DNA from: an uncultured SAR116 cluster alpha proteobacterium
Lineage (GTDB): Bacteria; Pseudomonadota; Alphaproteobacteria; Puniceispirillales; Marisalimonadaceae
Length of the DNA stretch: 64,000 nucleotides
Direction: 5' to 3'
NCBI GenBank assembly: GCA_902548635.1
Contig: CACCSH010000005.1
Location: 9,398-73,397 of the forward strand
The position numbers and the translations under genes were made by a program. The stretch's first letter is position 1. Each line of letters begins with the position of its first letter. Under the pieces are notes generated by a model. That model saw only the letters and a list, made by a program, of their open reading frames with translations, was not told the DNA's origin and made no database searches. Below, piece by piece: positions 37,237-42,029 of the stretch.

Positions 37237-37740
37237 TCAAATTTTATTCTTGTTAAGTTTCTTATCATAATAGGTTTGATATTTTTCAGATAATACATTC
37301 ATATTTTTAAAAAAATCAATCTCTGAATATGCTTTACAGCTTCTACGATTAAATATTTTAGTTTTTGTTATGTTCATTTTGCTCAATATTAACGTTTTCC
37401 TATCTAATACGTATGCATAAATATTTAGACTATCTTTATAAGTCCACTTAATTTCGTTTAGGTCGAGATTAAATCTTTTTTTCTTTCTCAGACTGGTTTG
37501 AAGGTTCTCACTCACTTTTATATTATCTCCAATTTTGCTTAAATAATATATTGCTACTTTATTTGTTTTGAAATGAAATCCAATTTCAGTAGGTTTTTTA
37601 TTAGCTAAGTATGAAGAAGGATCTAAATGCCTTACCTTACAATCTAAGCATTCACAGATTATTCCTTTACCATCAACACTTCCAAAAGAAGGTAAAGAGT
37701 AGAATAAAAATATAATTGTTGTGGATATAAGTTTTATCAT
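37237..37740 (-). CDS. Hypothetical secreted protein with CxCxxC motif
   Basis: N-terminal signal-like peptide, GIICECLDC, later Cys, ends NKI. Confidence 0.7.
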   Translation of the reverse strand: MIKLISTTIIFLFYSLPSFGSVDGKGIICECLDCKVRHLDPSSYLANKKPTEIGFHFKTNKVAIYYLSKIGDNIKVSENLQTSLRKKKRFNLDLNEIKWTYKDSLNIYAYVLDRKTLILSKMNITKTKIFNRRSCKAYSEIDFFKNMNVLSEKYQTYYDKKLNKNKI

Positions 37741-37882
37741 ATTAATTAAATAATGAGAGAAACTGAGAATACAATATAAACTCTATAATTAATAAAAAAT
37801 AATGATATCTCCAAAATTTCTATTTGTCTAACACATATTCAATATCACTTTTACTGATACTAAAACTAATTGAATGGTTATA

Positions 37883-38205
37883 TTATATTATTTTTAATTT
37901 AATTCTCAAGTTTTCATTTTTAGGTTTATTTCTTATACTTTCTTTTATTAGAAATCTTTTTCTTTTTAAGAATAGAAAATACATGAGTGTTTTTTTGTCC
38001 GTCCTCTGGTTGTTTAGTATCCATGTTCATTTAACCAATAAGAATTCATTCTATAACCCATTCCAGAGTCATGGAGAGACTTAATGCAGTCGTGCAGTTC
38101 CTCTTGTTCTGGAGTGTATTTCTCATTCTGTTTGTAGACAAACTGGTTTTTTTTTCACGGAAACACAAAAACAAAGATAATAAGAAAACTTGGGGTTTTT
38201 TATTT
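37883..38205 (-). pseudogene. Decayed paralogue of the 115-aa Recombinase-domain gene
   Basis: Reconstructed KNPKFSYYLCFCVSVKK/NQFVYKQNEKYTPEQEELHDCIKSLHDSGMGYRMNSYWLNEHGY*TTRG/KNTHVFSILKKKK.../PKNENLRIKLKII*; frameshifts and stops; colinear with 38386-38733. Confidence 0.85.
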
Positions 38206-38218
38206 CTTCAGATATAAA

Positions 38219-38392
38219 TTAATTTAATAAATTTTTAAATATCACTTTTTCAGATTTTAATTTTTGTATTTGTGCTGTAGTCATCCAACAAGAAAGATAG
38301 TATGTGCTGTTTGAAATATTTTTTCCTAGATCTGTAGTTGATATTTGATTTATGTTAGGTTGAGGTAGATTAATTTCAATACTATTTAACAT
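38219..38392 (-). CDS. 57-aa hypothetical ORF overlapping the stop of the Recombinase-domain gene
   Basis: MLNSIEINLPQPNINQISTTDLGKNISNSTYYLSCWMTTAQIQKLKSEKVIFKNLLN*; ATGTTAA overlap. Confidence 0.4.
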   Translation of the reverse strand: MLNSIEINLPQPNINQISTTDLGKNISNSTYYLSCWMTTAQIQKLKSEKVIFKNLLN

Positions 38393-38733
38393 ACTCTAAT
38401 TCGTTTCAACTCTAGTCTGAAATTTTGAATTGTGGGTTCAAATCTCTTCGCCATTCTTTCATCAGCAATTTGTTTTTTCTTAAGAATGGAAAAGACATGA
38501 GTATTTTTAAACTCATGTCCTCTAGGTGTTTTGTATCCATGTTTATTCAACCAAGAGGAAATCCTGCGATAACCCAGTCCAAAATTGTGTTTTTCTCTAA
38601 TAATTTCCCACAGTTCTTGTTGGTAAGTAGAATGTCTAATTTTGTTGAGATGTGATGCCTTAATTCTAACTGTAAATGAAATAAAAACTTGAATATTAGG
38701 GTTGTCTAAATACCACCTAACCCCATCATTCAA
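38386..38733 (-). CDS. Stand-alone large-serine-recombinase 'Recombinase' (PF07508-like) DNA-binding domain protein, no catalytic domain
   Basis: GLGYRRISSWLNKHGYKTPRGHEFKNTHVFSILKK fits the G-x4-I-x3-LN-x2-G-x2-T-x-RG-x2-W/F-x4-V-x2-IL pattern; TTG start lies inside the att-like core. Confidence 0.72.
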   Translation of the reverse strand: MNDGVRWYLDNPNIQVFISFTVRIKASHLNKIRHSTYQQELWEIIREKHNFGLGYRRISSWLNKHGYKTPRGHEFKNTHVFSILKKKQIADERMAKRFEPTIQNFRLELKRIRVC

Positions 38734-38743
38734 CAGTTACCGA
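38726..38743 (-). repeat. Second copy of the glmS tail (TCG GTA ACT GTT GAA TGA = SVTVE*), putative att junction
   Basis: glmS ends TCA GTC ACA GTA GAG TAG; the five sense codons differ only at wobble positions. Confidence 0.85.
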
Positions 38744-38751
38744 TTGGATTT

Positions 38752-38765
38752 AACTTACAATTTAA
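38752..38765 (+). repeat. 14-bp inverted repeat, distal arm (AACTTACAATTTAA)
   Basis: Exact reverse complement of 40164-40177. Confidence 0.92.
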
Positions 38766-38785
38766 TATGACCCTAAATTTTTTAT

Positions 38786-39937
38786 TTAGAAATTCTGAGA
38801 CTTAACTAATTTTTTTAAAATTATTTTTTCTAATTTGTGATAATCATAATTCTTTCTAATGGAATTTGTTAATAGAACAGACCCGCTATCCAAATTAACG
38901 ATCATTATTTGTCCACCATGACCTCTTAAAGCAAGATGTTTAAATTTTAAACTTTCATTTCCCATCCAAAAAAAGGCGCCATACCTTCTAAAATCTTTTG
39001 CTTTTCGTTTTTTTGATGAAACACTCTCATCAATTATTTTTTTTAAATAATTTGAAATGCAAGAGTTTGAATTATAATCTTCATATATTAATTTACCAAA
39101 CTTCAAATAATCTTTTCTACTTGAATACATAAAAGCAAAGAATATAGTCCAATCATTTTTATCTCTTAAAAAAATTACGTTGTTGTTGAAACCTGCTCGA
39201 TCAACTATTTTCTTTTTAAAGTAATTACCAATACCATCTGGTAAACTTTTATCCAAGGCAGTTGCTGCAATGTCTGTTAAAATATTTGAATAGTAAAATT
39301 CGTTTTTACTTTTATTTTTTTTATTTGTTTTTTTTAATAAATCCAAAATAGGTATTTTATCAGTTAATACTGGAGCAGCGTATGACATAGATGTTTTGGA
39401 TTTATACCCTCCTTCTTTAAAATAATTCTTATCTCCAGCGGACATATTGATTATTTGTCTAATCGTCGCTCCCTCATAAACAGTGCCCACAGTATCTTTC
39501 AAATACAACTGTATTTGATCATCAATAGATTTAATATAATTATCACAAATTGCGTGACCAATTAAGTAACCAACGTAACTTTTTGCCATGGACATGCTAT
39601 ACATTAATGTATTTTCATTCATTTTATTTTGTGAAATTTCATTAATTTCTATTTCGGAACCATTAAAATATAAAACACTTAACAAATCACTATTTGAAAT
39701 GATTTTTTTTATCTTATTATTAGGTTTTGATATATCCTTAAACTGAATTGGATTGGAAGATTTAGATATGATTTCATTTTTAAAAGATCTTTTTAACTTA
39801 CCAAGTCTATATTCGTGAACAGCAATTGCTTGCTTATTATTTTTTTTTAATTGATGGTCTGAGAATGAGTAAGAGGAATAGAATAAAAGTGATATTAAAA
39901 TAACAAGTTTTAATAGACTATGCACGAGAAACTCCAT
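38786..39937 (-). CDS. Secreted serine hydrolase, beta-lactamase/AmpC-like family
   Basis: Signal peptide, SMAKS (SxxK), YSN (YxN), LINMSAG-like segment, GHGGQ. Confidence 0.85.
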   Translation of the reverse strand: MEFLVHSLLKLVILISLLFYSSYSFSDHQLKKNNKQAIAVHEYRLGKLKRSFKNEIISKSSNPIQFKDISKPNNKIKKIISNSDLLSVLYFNGSEIEINEISQNKMNENTLMYSMSMAKSYVGYLIGHAICDNYIKSIDDQIQLYLKDTVGTVYEGATIRQIINMSAGDKNYFKEGGYKSKTSMSYAAPVLTDKIPILDLLKKTNKKNKSKNEFYYSNILTDIAATALDKSLPDGIGNYFKKKIVDRAGFNNNVIFLRDKNDWTIFFAFMYSSRKDYLKFGKLIYEDYNSNSCISNYLKKIIDESVSSKKRKAKDFRRYGAFFWMGNESLKFKHLALRGHGGQIMIVNLDSGSVLLTNSIRKNYDYHKLEKIILKKLVKSQNF

Positions 39938-39976
39938 ATTAGTTAATATGTTAAATATTTGAGATAAAAAAATTTG

Positions 39977-40160
39977 TCAATTCATTTTATACATTTTAGG
40001 GATTATGTTTATTTTTTGAACTATGATCTCAACATCTATTTTATTTAGTTGTCTCATAGTTTTAAGAACAGATTTTTTTTAGAATAATTGTCATTTAGAT
40101 AATGAACTAGAGCGTTGGTTCTATGTTTAACAGTAAAACAAATATAGGTAATATACTTGT
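39977..40160 (-). pseudogene. Internally deleted remnant of the same Recombinase-domain gene family
   Basis: YICFTVKHRTNALVHYLNDNYS aligns with YLCFCVSVKKNQFVYKQNEKYT of the 37883-38205 copy; then SVLK in another frame. Confidence 0.55.
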
Positions 40161-40163
40161 TTG

Positions 40164-40177
40164 TTAAATTGTAAGTT
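40164..40177 (-). repeat. 14-bp inverted repeat, glmS-proximal arm
   Basis: TTAAATTGTAAGTT on +; begins 4 nt after the glmS TAG. Confidence 0.92.
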
Positions 40178-40181
40178 GAGA

Positions 40182-42029
40182 CTACTCTACTGTGACTGAC
40201 TTAGCTAAATTCCTTGGTTGATCTACGTCAGTGCCTCTTTCCTTGGCAACGTGATAAGCTAACAACTGAGCAGGAATAGACATCAATAAGGGAGACAATA
40301 AAGATTTAAATTCATTTTCAAATTCAGCTATTTCTATTGTAAAATGTGCAAAATTGGCTTTATCAATACATTTTTTATCCGCAATTAAAATAATTTTTGC
40401 TCCTCTAGAATAAGCTTCTTGTAAATTGCTAATCGCCTTGTCTTCATTACCATCTGATACTAAAAACATTATGACTGGAACATTATCTTCTATAAGTGCA
40501 ATTGGACCATGTTTCATTTCACCTGCAGCAAATCCTTCTGCATGAATATAGCTTATTTCTTTTAATTTTAATGCACCCTCCAGAGCTAGAGGATACAAAA
40601 CACCCCTACCTAGAAAAATCACACTCTTTGAATTTTTTATGTTTTTAGCAATTAATTTAATTTGATTTTCTGTTTCCAACATATTAGCAATAGCACTTGG
40701 TAACAAATTCATAAATTGACATTTTTTTTCAATTTGTGGAGTTCTCAAGTTGTTAAACTTTTTACCTAAACCAACAGCTATTAGAAATAATATTACAAGT
40801 TGGGATGTAAATGATTTTGTACTTGCAACACCTATTTCTGGTCCAACTCTAGTATACAGACTATAATCAACTTCCCTATCAATAGTACTGCCTTCTACGT
40901 TTACAATTGCATTTGTTTTGAGACCTAATTCTTTTCCATACCTCAATGCCATCAGCGTGTCTAAACTTTCACCAGATTGAGAAATGACCAACATTGAACT
41001 TTGACCAAAAATCGAGGGTTTTCTATACCTATATTCTGAAGCAAGATCAACAATGACAGGTATATCCGCAATTTGTTCAATCCAATACTTACCTACCATT
41101 CCAGCGTAATAACTTGTACCTGCAGCGCAAATAATTAAAGTTTTTTTGTTTTCAAAGCCAAATTTATCAAGATCAATTGTTATTTCTGAATTATTTTTAA
41201 CAAAACTTGATGTGGTTTGAGGTAATACTACTGGTTGTTCAAATATTTCTTTTTCCATGAAATGTTTATAACCACCTTTTGTAATCAAACCAATTTCAGC
41301 TTGAATATTGATTATTGTTCTACTCACTTTTTTTAAATTTTTATCAAAAATACTTATGTTGTTACTTCTTAATAATGCATGATCACCGTCTTCTAAATAA
41401 ATTATTCTTTGTGTTAGATGATCTATTGAATGAGCATCAGAACCAATAAAATTTGCATTATCTCCCAACCCTATTGCTAAAGGAGATGAGTTTCTTGAGA
41501 CAAATAATTGGTTTGGGAAATCTACACTCATCGCAACAAAAGCAAATGCACCTTTAATATCTTTAAGCACAAGTCTGCCTGCTTCCAAAAGATCATTGCC
41601 CATTTTAATATATTTCATAAATAAATGAGGTAACACCTCAGTATCTGTCTCACTTCTAAAATTATAACCTAGTGATATTAGTTCTTGTTTTAAACTTTCA
41701 AAGTTTTCTATTATTCCATTATGCACAACAGCTATTTTGTTCTCACTAATTAAAGGATGAGCATTTTCAAAACTTATGTTTCCGTGTGTTGCCCATCTTG
41801 TGTGACCTAAAGCTATAGAATTATCAAAATATAATTTTTCTTTCGTTGATATATCTAACTTTCCAATCAAATTTAATAGTTTGCCTTCAGATTTTATTGT
41901 TTGTAATAATCCTTGTGAAACAGAAGCAATACCTGCTGAGTCATAACCACGATATTCAAGTTTTTTTAGTCCTTCAATAACAAGTTGGCTTGCATTTTCT
42001 TTACCTAAAACAGCAACTACACCACACAT
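40182..42029 (-). CDS. glmS: Glutamine--fructose-6-phosphate aminotransferase
   Basis: MCG, LEYRGYDSAG, GHTRWATHG, HNGIIEN, ASTK, DQPRNLAKSVTVE. Confidence 0.99.
   Translation of the reverse strand: MCGVVAVLGKENASQLVIEGLKKLEYRGYDSAGIASVSQGLLQTIKSEGKLLNLIGKLDISTKEKLYFDNSIALGHTRWATHGNISFENAHPLISENKIAVVHNGIIENFESLKQELISLGYNFRSETDTEVLPHLFMKYIKMGNDLLEAGRLVLKDIKGAFAFVAMSVDFPNQLFVSRNSSPLAIGLGDNANFIGSDAHSIDHLTQRIIYLEDGDHALLRSNNISIFDKNLKKVSRTIINIQAEIGLITKGGYKHFMEKEIFEQPVVLPQTTSSFVKNNSEITIDLDKFGFENKKTLIICAAGTSYYAGMVGKYWIEQIADIPVIVDLASEYRYRKPSIFGQSSMLVISQSGESLDTLMALRYGKELGLKTNAIVNVEGSTIDREVDYSLYTRVGPEIGVASTKSFTSQLVILFLIAVGLGKKFNNLRTPQIEKKCQFMNLLPSAIANMLETENQIKLIAKNIKNSKSVIFLGRGVLYPLALEGALKLKEISYIHAEGFAAGEMKHGPIALIEDNVPVIMFLVSDGNEDKAISNLQEAYSRGAKIILIADKKCIDKANFAHFTIEIAEFENEFKSLLSPLLMSIPAQLLAYHVAKERGTDVDQPRNLAKSVTVE

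Follow-up and report, generated by a model that had tools for sequence, protein, structure and literature searches.

The stretch of DNA that reaches from the glmS gene to about position 37741 of the window (the 64,000-nt stretch analysed here) is probably an integration array that was built by serine integrases of the LSR type, in which the small genes found behind glmS would be a detachable 3′ module of the integrase. We use "RDP" (Recombinase-domain protein) as a working name for this small-gene family. The array is visible in its own anatomy, in an insertion polymorphism among close strains that locates the crossover and in the gene order of related islands, and the RDP is connected to the enzyme by an open reading frame (ORF) in which both are fused and by the co-divergence of LSRs and RDPs. 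These comparisons suggest that the RDP may serve the integrase as an additional DNA-binding part, the attachment of which would change upon integration.

In the mechanism that we propose, the five final codons of glmS would serve the LSRs as attB. The incoming circle would carry an attP of ~54 bp, the inner part of which would mimic the glmS tail, so that glmS would be restored after insertion, and the outer arms of which would form an inverted repeat that differs from one element family to another, with strand exchange at a 2-bp AC. On such a circle, the order would be (small resolvase)-LSR-attP-RDP, all in one direction, and the RDP would be read in frame with the LSR (one lineage, with a 725-aa ORF) or via a one-base slip (four lineages). 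Integration would then cut between the two parts, so that attL would hold the RDP, directly behind glmS, and attR, at the opposite end, the body of the LSR; later deletions would give rise to integrase-less cassettes that keep both arms and all or part of the RDP and that may be movable in trans. In the window, RDP copy 1 would be the stump of the newest, recently inserted cassette, copy 2 an intact module left by an earlier unit, fixed in the species, and copy 3 a decayed one from a unit that is older again.

The target gene glmS (40182..42029, complementary strand, as are all genes and RDP copies of the window described below) was identified as an ORF with Pfam SIS and GATase domains that ends in SVTVE-stop, and it is 54-97% identical to glmS at the loci of relatives. 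The three tandem RDP copies described in the sequence-only reading, all co-oriented with glmS, are real: a stump just after glmS, an intact 115-aa gene and a frameshifted pseudogene. Copy 1 (40054..40146) is an N-terminal stump of ~30-45 codons from which the helix-turn-helix (HTH) core is deleted. Its peptide, YICFTVKHRTNALVHYLNDNYS, is encoded at 40146-40081 in a frame that stays open to 40054 and matches the conserved N-terminus of the RDP family (YLCFTV..RTN..) and also the RDP portion of the 725-aa ORF (P0121); its DNA is 91% identical over 99 nt to positions 5015-5113 of contig Ga0209336_10005111 (L095), which carries a small resolvase-LSR-attP-RDP module. Copy 2 (38386..38733, 115 aa) starts with a TTG that precedes the end of the displaced glmS stop codon by 7 nt. 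It matches the Pfam Recombinase profile (PF07508; E 6.4e-5, 23.6 bits for a cut-off of 21.1) in a region limited to residues 52-87, corresponding to profile positions 17-52 of 102, its AlphaFold model has a pLDDT of 83 and its dN/dS against its closest relatives is 0.14-0.27. Copy 3 (37929..38182) is a pseudogene with two frameshifts and one internal stop, recognised from DNA repeats and by tblastn, the pieces of which lie in three frames (38182-38150, 38148-38017 and 37994-37929). It belongs to a subfamily other than that of copy 2, with which it shares a DNA repeat (38001-38065 versus 38517-38581, 82% identity over 65 nt) and 44% identity over residues 38-89 by tblastn.

The six-frame translation of the window contains SVTVE-stop exactly twice, both times on the glmS strand: at 40199-40182, which is the true end of glmS, and at 38743-38726, where it overlaps the start of the intact ORF. 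Two RDP copies are then preceded by such a tail and the pseudogene is not, as had been claimed from the sequence; a search ahead of copy 3 revealed no recognisable tail or degenerate tail, no att site being left there, and the lost right-hand arm of the unit of copy 2 was searched for and not found. Directly after copy 2 lies a 57-aa ORF (38219..38392) that is called as a gene in 10/10 sister-strain contigs and that has one weak homologue, in L048. The distal flank of the island, outside the array, is a conserved gene for a 167-aa secreted protein (37237..37740), which is found beyond the last att site in 12 same-genus relatives (copies 51-86% identical).

Ten near-identical strains (98-99.9% identity on both flanks) lack the 1,456-bp unit that bears the stump. 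Because glmS is directly followed by the 115-aa gene in these ten strains, the stump unit is the newest insertion and it adjoins glmS, which supports the proposal that the array grew from glmS. The joint that skips the 1,456 bp was also found in two DNA and two RNA-library metagenome runs, alongside the occupied form, and this polymorphism in natural populations indirectly supports the idea that recombination may take place at these sites. The absence of the unit from the ten strains also made it possible to map the crossover to a 2-bp AC within the tail: when the empty site of strain L073 (attB) is aligned with attL and attR, the three share only this AC at the switch point, the partner changing on either side. 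attL, the junction between glmS and the newest cassette, lies at 40160..40230 (AC at 40193-40192; outer block of the P′ arm at 40166-40177), and attR, the junction between the cassette and the former end of glmS, lies at 38700..38775 (displaced tail at 38743-38726; AC at 38737-38736; outer block of the P arm at 38752-38763). The cassette between them (38738..40191; 1,456 bp AC to AC) carries no recombinase and consists of the RDP stump and a cargo gene (38786..39937) that encodes a 383-aa beta-lactamase-fold protein of the serine hydrolase family (PF00144, E 4.4e-10). No exact copy of this cargo gene is on record, and no close homologue was found in 66 family genomes, the best being 32% identical. 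The rebuilt attP is a 54-bp inverted repeat with 12-nt inverted blocks located 14 nt on each side of the AC. A 2-bp AC crossover and an inverted-repeat attP are signatures of serine integrases. The same intact attP, with the arms of the window cassette, was found in metagenome contigs; a circle junction of the 1,456-bp cassette was not found among metagenome contigs, from which rare circles could escape, and viral_contigs contained no match to the attP patterns of two arm families.

The insertion took place inside the coding tail of glmS, 9 nt before the stop codon, and it generated no 5-bp target duplication. A Tn7-like element at attTn7, which would be expected ~25 bp downstream of glmS with a 5-bp duplication and Tns proteins, was rejected on these grounds, and no transposase was found among the island ORFs scanned. 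An integron was rejected as well, the contig of the window having no PF00589 match, the junctions being copies of the glmS tail and no integrase standing beside glmS; the description of the array as "integron-like" is then good as an analogy, and its enzyme and sites are of the serine-recombinase type.

We then considered the array in a set of 33 related glmS islands (316 kb). Full glmS tails were found 77 times on the glmS strand and never on the opposite strand, so that this pattern is more than chance, and half tails were found 35 and 3 times, respectively. For 74/84 RDP copies, the 5′ end lies at most 150 nt from a co-oriented copy of the glmS tail. The two arms of one cassette match each other at 19.6 of 45 positions compared to 15.1 for mismatched pairs (79 units), with standard units typically matching at 22-32 positions and with at least 10 arm families. 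An additional copy of the P′ outer block in direct orientation, which might have served as an extra binding site, was rejected as a general feature, since it was seen at only 5/111 sites. Units are mostly tiny (median ~1.4 kb) and lack an integrase, arrays reach up to 7 sites and near-identical units are found in different genera and classes; the same arm block is present in LSR-bearing elements and in integrase-less units of 0.7-1.7 kb.

These observations also bear on the idea that the copies are local tandem duplicates of a decayed host gene, with SVTVE repeats that arose by chance, by homologous recombination or through Xer, an integron integrase or a Tn7-like transposon. It would fit the window, which contains no recombinase: no LSR was found there or in the rest of its own genome (82% complete), where only two small resolvases and several tyrosine recombinases were detected, all on other contigs. 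The site behind glmS is also the classical target of Tn7. Nevertheless, the copies fall into distinct subfamilies that are 30-45% identical, the junction in the coding tail is precise to 2 bp and free of a 5-bp duplication, arms pair within each cassette, full tails are missing from the opposite strand, units are shared nearly unchanged across genera and classes and LSRs end 20-43 nt ahead of the tails in five loci. Local duplication is strongly disfavoured by these data and we consider it extremely improbable.

Full elements in relatives have the linear order tail-RDP-cargo-small resolvase-LSR-tail, which corresponds to the circular order LSR, attP, RDP. Resolvase, LSR and RDP were found together in elements of G046, G001, G039, G018 and a Cellvibrionaceae chromosome, and the LSR of an alphaproteobacterium is 91% identical to that of a Cellvibrionaceae chromosome. 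A cognate LSR, with Resolvase and Recombinase domains and a zinc ribbon/coiled coil, stands beside attP in relatives and in metagenome contigs, and the RDP is located immediately 3′ of attP in the contigs that have an intact attP. The claim that each incoming element carries this gene beside attP is thus supported by elements and contigs alike. Of the three or more successive integrations that had been deduced from the three copies, one event is directly documented by the strains that lack it, and the two others are deduced from the remaining copies, the third copy having no att site.

A link of the RDP to the integrase is seen in metagenome contigs with the intact attP of the window cassette, where one 725-aa LSR-RDP ORF runs through attP. 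This ORF is present in at least three independent contigs as three sequence versions, and the similarity between these contigs extends through attP and the RDP and breaks only ~75 nt after the RDP. The three attP-form contigs have no terminal overlap and could, in principle, be junctions of two like elements in an array instead of circles. Only one lineage is known to have the in-frame fusion. Longer proteins (398-1269 aa) searched with the RDP part of this ORF yielded only its own cluster, a short member of which (P0272) was rejected as an integrated RDP since it is an N-terminal LSR fragment; among longer proteins, no closer or fused homologue of the 115-aa protein was found. In four other lineages, a run of A7-A10, which is A9/A10 in the G046 and G001 lineages, lies 52-61 nt ahead of the crossover, and changing a single A there opens ORFs of 694-730 aa, suggesting that slippage may occur at this run and that a fusion or slippage product may be made. 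The pairwise identities of LSRs and RDPs track each other 1:1 (r = 0.98, 10 pairs). With the ORF across attP, the four lineages that are one A away from it and this parallel divergence, the proposal that the small protein is part of a split integrase gains direct support.

An alternative is that the RDP is a separate accessory gene, such as a directionality factor/excisionase or a regulator, that would be turned on after integration through glmS read-through or translational coupling. The majority of RDPs stand alone as ORFs of 95-145 aa and have a start codon of their own, the RDP starts at or just past the glmS stop codon in 22/33 islands and the dN/dS of the family is well under 1 (0.07-0.45). 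RNA-library contigs also run from the 3′ end of glmS through the entire copy 2, in the cassette-free form, and the intact RDP right behind glmS in the recipient of the cassette is probably transcribed. Integration of the newest cassette took place with no intact RDP on it, as could be expected of a factor needed for excision only; it also implies that the RDP is dispensable in cis for integration. Against an accessory gene stands the natural in-frame LSR-RDP fusion, which the non-integrated form would make. Engineered integrase-RDF fusions (phiC31 Int-gp3) favour excision over integration, and a fusion of this type would thus push a circle that needs to integrate in the wrong direction. Moreover, in all LSR lineages the RDP frame can be followed without a stop back to the A-run, no start codon precedes the conserved core of the RDPs in the two lineages richest in LSRs and about half of the integrated copies in the 33 islands are broken. 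Intact RDPs amount to 13/22 next to glmS, 16/35 at internal positions and 12/17 when inverted; no clear difference by position emerges, and this test did not separate the rival explanations. Judging from these sequences, the position of the RDP and the fusion would weakly argue against a role as a directionality factor, and we see a separate accessory gene as rather unlikely.

Returning to the RDP as an integrase module, this small HTH protein is probably related to the LSR Recombinase domain, over the first half of the latter. PF00239, the Resolvase catalytic domain, has no match in the RDP, so that the RDP alone cannot be a recombinase. The PHROG_95 and NCBIfam CcrB profiles weakly match the same RDP region as Pfam, some members fall below the PF07508 cut-off or have no match, and hhalign of the RDP against the LSR of G046 gave an E of 0.046. 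In the comparison of predicted structures that had been proposed, RDP residues 27-97 align to residues 165-253 of serine integrases, in the region of their Recombinase domain (Z 7.2), and the RDP also aligns to Bxb1 (Z 5.6-6.1); as a small terminase scores Z 8.0, the modelled match to the LSR fold is no better than that to other HTH domains. Foldseek of the RDP against the PDB returned nothing at E ≤ 0.001, a profile search of PDB sequences gave chance-level matches only and a search for related loci with a single RDP protein found no relative. LSRs of ~1,000 aa with C-terminal RDP-like HTH modules do exist. Many stand-alone RDPs have their own starts, are under purifying selection and persist in hosts that lack any serine recombinase, such as the complete genome of G021 (two RDPs, no Resolvase match), which would also fit an independent function.

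One such function would be that of a recombinase decoy, a copy of the DNA-binding domain that lacks catalysis, occupies the glmS-tail site and blocks further integration or excision, providing immunity or stabilisation. Its appeal comes from the probable homology of the RDP to the HTH region of the Recombinase domain, which contacts the inner att half-site in LSRs, from its location adjoining the site and from its persistence in LSR-free genomes. Yet the recipient of the newest cassette was invaded even if it already had an intact and probably transcribed RDP behind glmS, arrays of up to 7 sites make repeated integration the rule and the fused ORF is left unexplained, which makes a decoy improbable.

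If the RDP is instead a detachable DNA-binding domain of the integrase, its physical state may set the direction of recombination, a possibility that we put forward only tentatively. On the circle, the RDP would be joined to the LSR, in frame or by slippage, during transcription or on the ribosome, at the A7-A10 run; integration would sever it and place it under glmS read-through, so that the enzyme made by the circle would differ from that of the integrated element. If so, the enzyme would be a serine integrase that splits itself and whose frame is switched at a poly-A run, and we know of no description of such a directionality control for serine integrases. It would also explain how integrase-less cassettes with arms and an RDP spread across Alpha- and Gammaproteobacteria.

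Several known systems resemble parts of this arrangement. The SSV1-type integrases of archaeal fuselloviruses are tyrosine recombinases with attP inside the int gene and tRNA genes as targets. There too, integration partitions the integrase gene and leaves its pieces at opposite ends of the integrated element, but it is the catalytic body of a tyrosine enzyme that is split, whereas only an appended C-terminal HTH module of a serine enzyme would be detached here. Integrons share a fixed docking site, small and mostly single-gene cassettes that lack a recombinase and a newest cassette nearest the site; they differ by the tyrosine recombinase IntI encoded beside attI and by single-stranded folded attC sites, in contrast with the 2-bp AC crossover, the double-stranded inverted-repeat attPs and the integrase fragment carried by cassettes here. 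As SCC, SCCmec and pseudo-SCC elements inserted at rlmH by Ccr, glmS islands would arise as LSRs insert DNA at the 3′ end of a conserved gene, and they form composite tandem arrays bounded by end repeats, with recombinase-less units that may be mobilised in trans. The target, the unit size and the hosts (marine Alpha- and Gammaproteobacteria here) are different, and no RDP-like detached module is known for SCC. The LSR and the small resolvase match the NCBIfam CcrA and CcrB profiles only weakly (30 bits for a cut-off of 700 and 49 bits for a cut-off of 900, respectively), and membership in Ccr was rejected on these scores and on the glmS target.

A close parallel is with the ssrA islands of Dehalococcoides and their DsiA/DsiB recombinases (McMurdie et al. 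2011, PMC3146451). In both cases, islands stand in tandem behind a single-copy essential gene and are bounded by direct repeats of its 3′ end, a small serine recombinase of ~200 aa and an LSR of ~540-570 aa adjoin the att site and the LSR ORF runs into that site; it was even suggested that dsiB may be complete only on the circle or beside a neighbour that supplies the 3′ fragment (PMC3146451). Unlike in Dehalococcoides, where the target is the tmRNA gene, the target here is protein-coding and would be restored by codon mimicry, and the units are mostly tiny and integrase-less. The 3′ fragment is also a defined and conserved HTH family with thousands of members, in contrast to an overlap that was reported as divergent and undefined (PMC3146451), and a poly-A run sets the frame. 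Tycheposons and additive islands at tRNA ends in ocean bacteria (bioRxiv 10.1101/2020.12.28.424599; PMC10872708) likewise stack site-specific elements and their remnants at one locus of streamlined marine genomes, and some of them carry an LSR and a small serine recombinase; they target tRNA or tmRNA genes and mostly use tyrosine recombinases, with glmS unmentioned in the main text of the preprint (10.1101/2020.12.28.424599). No description of glmS-targeting serine recombinases was found in literature searches.

The link between RDPs and LSRs is then new here, and it would account for a family of >3,000 clusters, nearly all of them unnamed. It ties integrase-less glmS cassette arrays firmly to serine integrases and extends glmS arrays to Alphaproteobacteria, where the 91%-identical LSR indicates a recent transfer between classes. 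The array also provides a ready-made collection of orthogonal attP arm families, all of which share a single docking site that is universally conserved in bacteria. If the design with a split and a slippage were functional, it would be a new natural form of state-dependent serine integration, relevant to research on directionality and to genome-engineering tools.

Three pieces of a small helix-turn-helix family, the Recombinase-domain proteins (RDPs), lie behind glmS (40182-42029, minus strand, ending in SVTVE-stop), all on the glmS strand: a stump at 40146-40054 (copy 1) whose peptide fits the family's conserved N-terminus, an intact 115-aa ORF at 38386-38733 (copy 2) and a pseudogene at 38182-37929 (copy 3) running through three frames with one stop. 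Copy 2 matches Pfam Recombinase (PF07508) barely over the cut-off (E 6.4e-5) and only at residues 52-87, corresponding to profile positions 17-52 of 102, while copy 3 is seen as a 65-nt DNA repeat (82% identity) and as a tblastn match (44% identity). Translated in six frames, the window shows SVTVE-stop at just two places: the real glmS end and 38743-38726, where it overlaps the start of the intact RDP ORF and uses codons that differ from those of the glmS end. The sequence-only reading had described these features correctly in every detail. Altogether, the island spans 40192 to ~37741 and holds three RDP units and nothing else; its distal boundary is a conserved block comprising genes for a 167-aa secreted protein and an HTH protein as well as a photolyase-like gene, and in 12 members of the same genus the 167-aa protein gene lies past the last att site.

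RDPs form a genuine gene family. By a word-based search, 130 relatives were found, typically of 95-145 aa (range 63-163) and nearly all from marine metagenomes. When a profile was run against 1.84 billion cluster representatives, 3,182 matched at E <= 0.001 and 828 still did so at E <= 1e-10, most of them of 90-150 aa; a search among longer proteins found no longer homologue of the 115-aa RDP. Intact copies show dN/dS values of 0.07-0.45, indicating purifying selection. The AlphaFold model (pLDDT 83) has a three-helix core with two flanking strands, and its residues 27-97 align with the Recombinase-domain region in serine integrases of known structure (Z 7.2; Z 5.6-6.1 for Bxb1) but equally with other helix-turn-helix domains, such as that of a small terminase (Z 8.0). 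The matches to Pfam, PHROG_95 (integrase) and NCBIfam CcrB fall on one and the same RDP segment, the start of the DNA-binding domain of large serine recombinases (LSRs); the catalytic domain is absent. Five proteins of 259-801 aa (P0165, P0184, P0229, P0233 and P0134) carry 4-7 tandem RDP-like or Recombinase-like HTH modules, some with an N-terminal resolvase domain and others lacking it.

The host is an alphaproteobacterium (alpha_tmRNA match of 269 bits) with a genome of 2.07 Mb, 30% G+C and 82% completeness. RDP matches were found in 37 of the 66 species genomes of its GTDB family, usually as several diverged copies within a few kb. Among the first 20 loci retrieved, tblastn located RDP hits just downstream of the divergent glmU-glmS pair at 19; at the remaining one, L053, they were detected by the HMM only. 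Across 33 oriented islands (316 kb), the full glmS tail GTNACNGTNGARTRR was counted 77 times on the glmS strand (33 at glmS's own end and 44 internal) and 0 times on the opposite strand, and the right half-tail alone (ACNGTNGARTRR) 35 times versus 3. Consistent with the proposed association between RDP homologues and glmS-like tails, the RDP 5' end lies within 150 nt of a full or half tail in 74 of 84 copies, and an RDP starts at or directly past the glmS stop in 22 of the 33 islands.

One separate RDP subfamily (FFCFSITYRRPPFNV...; islands L035, L036, L037, L047, L050, L060, L065, L070 and others) is always opposite in orientation, its 5' end abutting a half-site from the left. The reverse-complemented tail (YSTV...) does not interrupt its frame, and it frequently stands head-to-head with a standard RDP. 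This arrangement suggests elements that dock in the opposite orientation; no LSR belonging to this class was found. Separately, RDP genes of genomes G039 (locus L057, 2417-2773) and G001 (locus L055, 10990-11346), which represent two genera, are 99% identical (dS 0.047); the glmS proteins of these genera share ~82% and 60% identity with the window's. This points to a very recent transfer of the unit. The window's own genome also encodes two small resolvases away from glmS (contig C16, 23462-23893, and contig C38, 641-1084; 205 and 223 aa), one of which adjoins a 348-aa ORF.

One integration could be caught directly. In 10 contigs of near-identical strains (98-99.9% identity over both flanks; GCA_902554665.1 is one), glmS is directly followed by the same 115-aa RDP, and compared with these the window has an additional 1,456 bp, comprising the stump and a 383-aa beta-lactamase-fold gene. 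When the empty site (attB) was aligned with both junctions, attL tracked attB up to ...GTCAC and attR tracked it from ACTGTT..., so that the exchange took place within the shared AC (40193-40192 and 38737-38736); crossovers of 2 bp are characteristic of serine recombinases. In the rebuilt attP, two inverted blocks of 12 nt, AAATTGTAAGTT and AACTTACAATTT, flank this AC at a distance of 14 nt on either side. Occupied and empty forms occur together in two marine DNA metagenomes, where the joint skipping the 1,456 bp has depths of 12 and 26 versus ~4-6 over the cassette. Since the invaded recipient already carried an intact RDP behind glmS, the idea that RDPs serve as decoys or immunity factors is unlikely. 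Three metagenome runs (two DNA and one RNA library) also contain contigs joining 38797 to 39699 with 14 other letters between, a shorter variant of this cassette with the beta-lactamase-fold gene mostly replaced.

A Resolvase-domain search of the 66 genomes returned, among its matches, four LSRs of 565-570 aa, each with an overlapping small resolvase (196-199 aa) ahead. Three end ~40 nt ahead of a strict tail copy; the LSR of G001 ends at a similar distance ahead of a half-site. An LSR 91% identical to that of genome G046 was found on a Cellvibrionaceae chromosome (Gammaproteobacteria, OZ243947.1), where a 29.5-kb island behind glmS (1933700-1963200) holds three stacked LSR elements, each in the order tail-RDP-cargo-small resolvase-LSR-tail. 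On the excised circle, LSR, attP and RDP therefore follow each other in one direction. In element 1, the RDP gene overlaps a 199-aa resolvase gene, and cargo ORFs of 983, 456 and 571 aa presumably form a type I restriction-modification system.

In 79 inter-site units (60 bp to 12 kb, median ~1.4 kb), the arm past the left crossover was compared with the reverse-complemented arm ahead of the right one. Paired arms share a 12-18-nt block, 10-28 nt from the crossover, and match at 19.6 of 45 positions versus 15.1 for mismatched pairs (typically 22-32 in standard units). Among at least 10 arm families, CAACTGATGAAATAA is shared by LSR-bearing elements of 6-8 kb and recombinase-less units of 0.7-1.7 kb, which makes the small units look like derivatives that are non-autonomous. 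Two different genomes (L042, G010:C19; L052, G048:C7) have two full glmS tails 60 nt apart around the same near-perfect 60-nt palindrome, an attP-like, cargo-free unit. At 5 of 111 sites, in two arm families, the outer P' arm block is doubled in direct orientation ~30 nt apart (L095, 4985-5045; L053; L062; L037; G066 element 2); it is not doubled in the window's cassette.

Scanning metagenomes with the rebuilt attP of the window's cassette yielded two contigs with an intact site, which sits within one 725-aa ORF (P0121), where an LSR (49% identity with that of G046) is joined by an attP-encoded linker to an RDP of the window-stump subfamily. This ORF exists in three sequence versions on at least 3 independent contigs, which share 99% identity over a stretch comprising a 402-aa gene, small resolvase, LSR, attP and RDP and split ~75 nt past the RDP; similarity continuing past the crossover counts against a mere junction of unrelated neighbours, for which a break at the crossover would be expected. 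Near its 3' end, the LSR gene contains a run of 7-10 A in each of the five lineages where it is intact, 52-61 nt ahead of the crossover in the four measured, and in the rebuilt attPs of G046, G001 and two Cellvibrionaceae elements one A more or less fuses the LSR with its own RDP into a 694-730-aa ORF. Moreover, LSR-body and RDP identities run ~1:1 (0.91/0.83, 0.61/0.60, 0.52/0.50, 0.32/0.32; r = 0.98, 10 pairs), even though the two genes sit 6-12 kb apart with unrelated cargo between them when integrated. Independent ~1,000-aa LSRs with C-terminal RDP-like HTH modules also exist.

It is thus well supported that the RDP belongs to the recombination module, and the earlier suggestions of a gene carried beside attP by incoming elements and of a part of a split integrase both gained support from the 725-aa ORF, the latter also from the one-A fusions and the co-divergence. 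We favour the RDP as an extra DNA-binding domain of the integrase: the circle would make an LSR-RDP protein, directly or via slippage, which integration would sever, thereby changing the linkage of the domain to the enzyme. A classical directionality factor is less likely, given that engineered integrase-RDF fusions favour excision, while the LSR-RDP fusion is encoded by the non-integrated form. It counts against the integrase-domain reading that many RDPs possess a start of their own and are maintained where no serine recombinase is encoded, as in the complete genome G021. Roughly half of the integrated copies in the 33 islands are broken, which fits a function in element spread rather than for the host.

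The sequence-only reading had proposed at least three successive integrations; one is demonstrated by the empty-site strains and the other two are inferred. The stump belongs to the newest cassette, a deletion derivative of an element like that on metagenome contig L095 (Ga0209336_10005111), of which it kept both arms and the first 30-45 RDP codons. This cassette is a recent arrival that brought no intact RDP, and the assembled genome (82% complete) encodes no LSR; integration therefore does not require an RDP in cis, and the enzyme was supplied in trans. Copy 2 represents an older unit, fixed in the species, whose module it preserves intact. Where a strain lacks the cassette, the TTG start of copy 2 overlaps the final codons of glmS, and contigs of two RNA-library runs reach from the end of glmS across the entire gene; this weakly suggests co-transcription, given that these are contigs and that DNA may have been carried over. 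Copy 3 is an older relic of another subfamily, for which neither the tail-pattern count nor a search for a degenerate tail revealed a remaining att site.

The closest published system is that of the Dehalococcoides ssrA genomic islands (PMC3146451), tandem islands in which a small resolvase (DsiA) and an LSR (DsiB) adjoin att; the dsiB ORF overlaps attL, and its describers raised, as a speculation, a dsiB gene that is whole solely on the circle. Functionally, the best-known analogue is the SCC/SCCmec arrays at rlmH. Our literature search found no description of glmS-targeting serine recombinases or of an RDP-like module. What is new here is the alphaproteobacterial host, the several LSR-bearing loci, a mapped 2-bp crossover with population polymorphism, and the proposed explanation of the small Recombinase-domain gene as a 3' module detached from the integrase.
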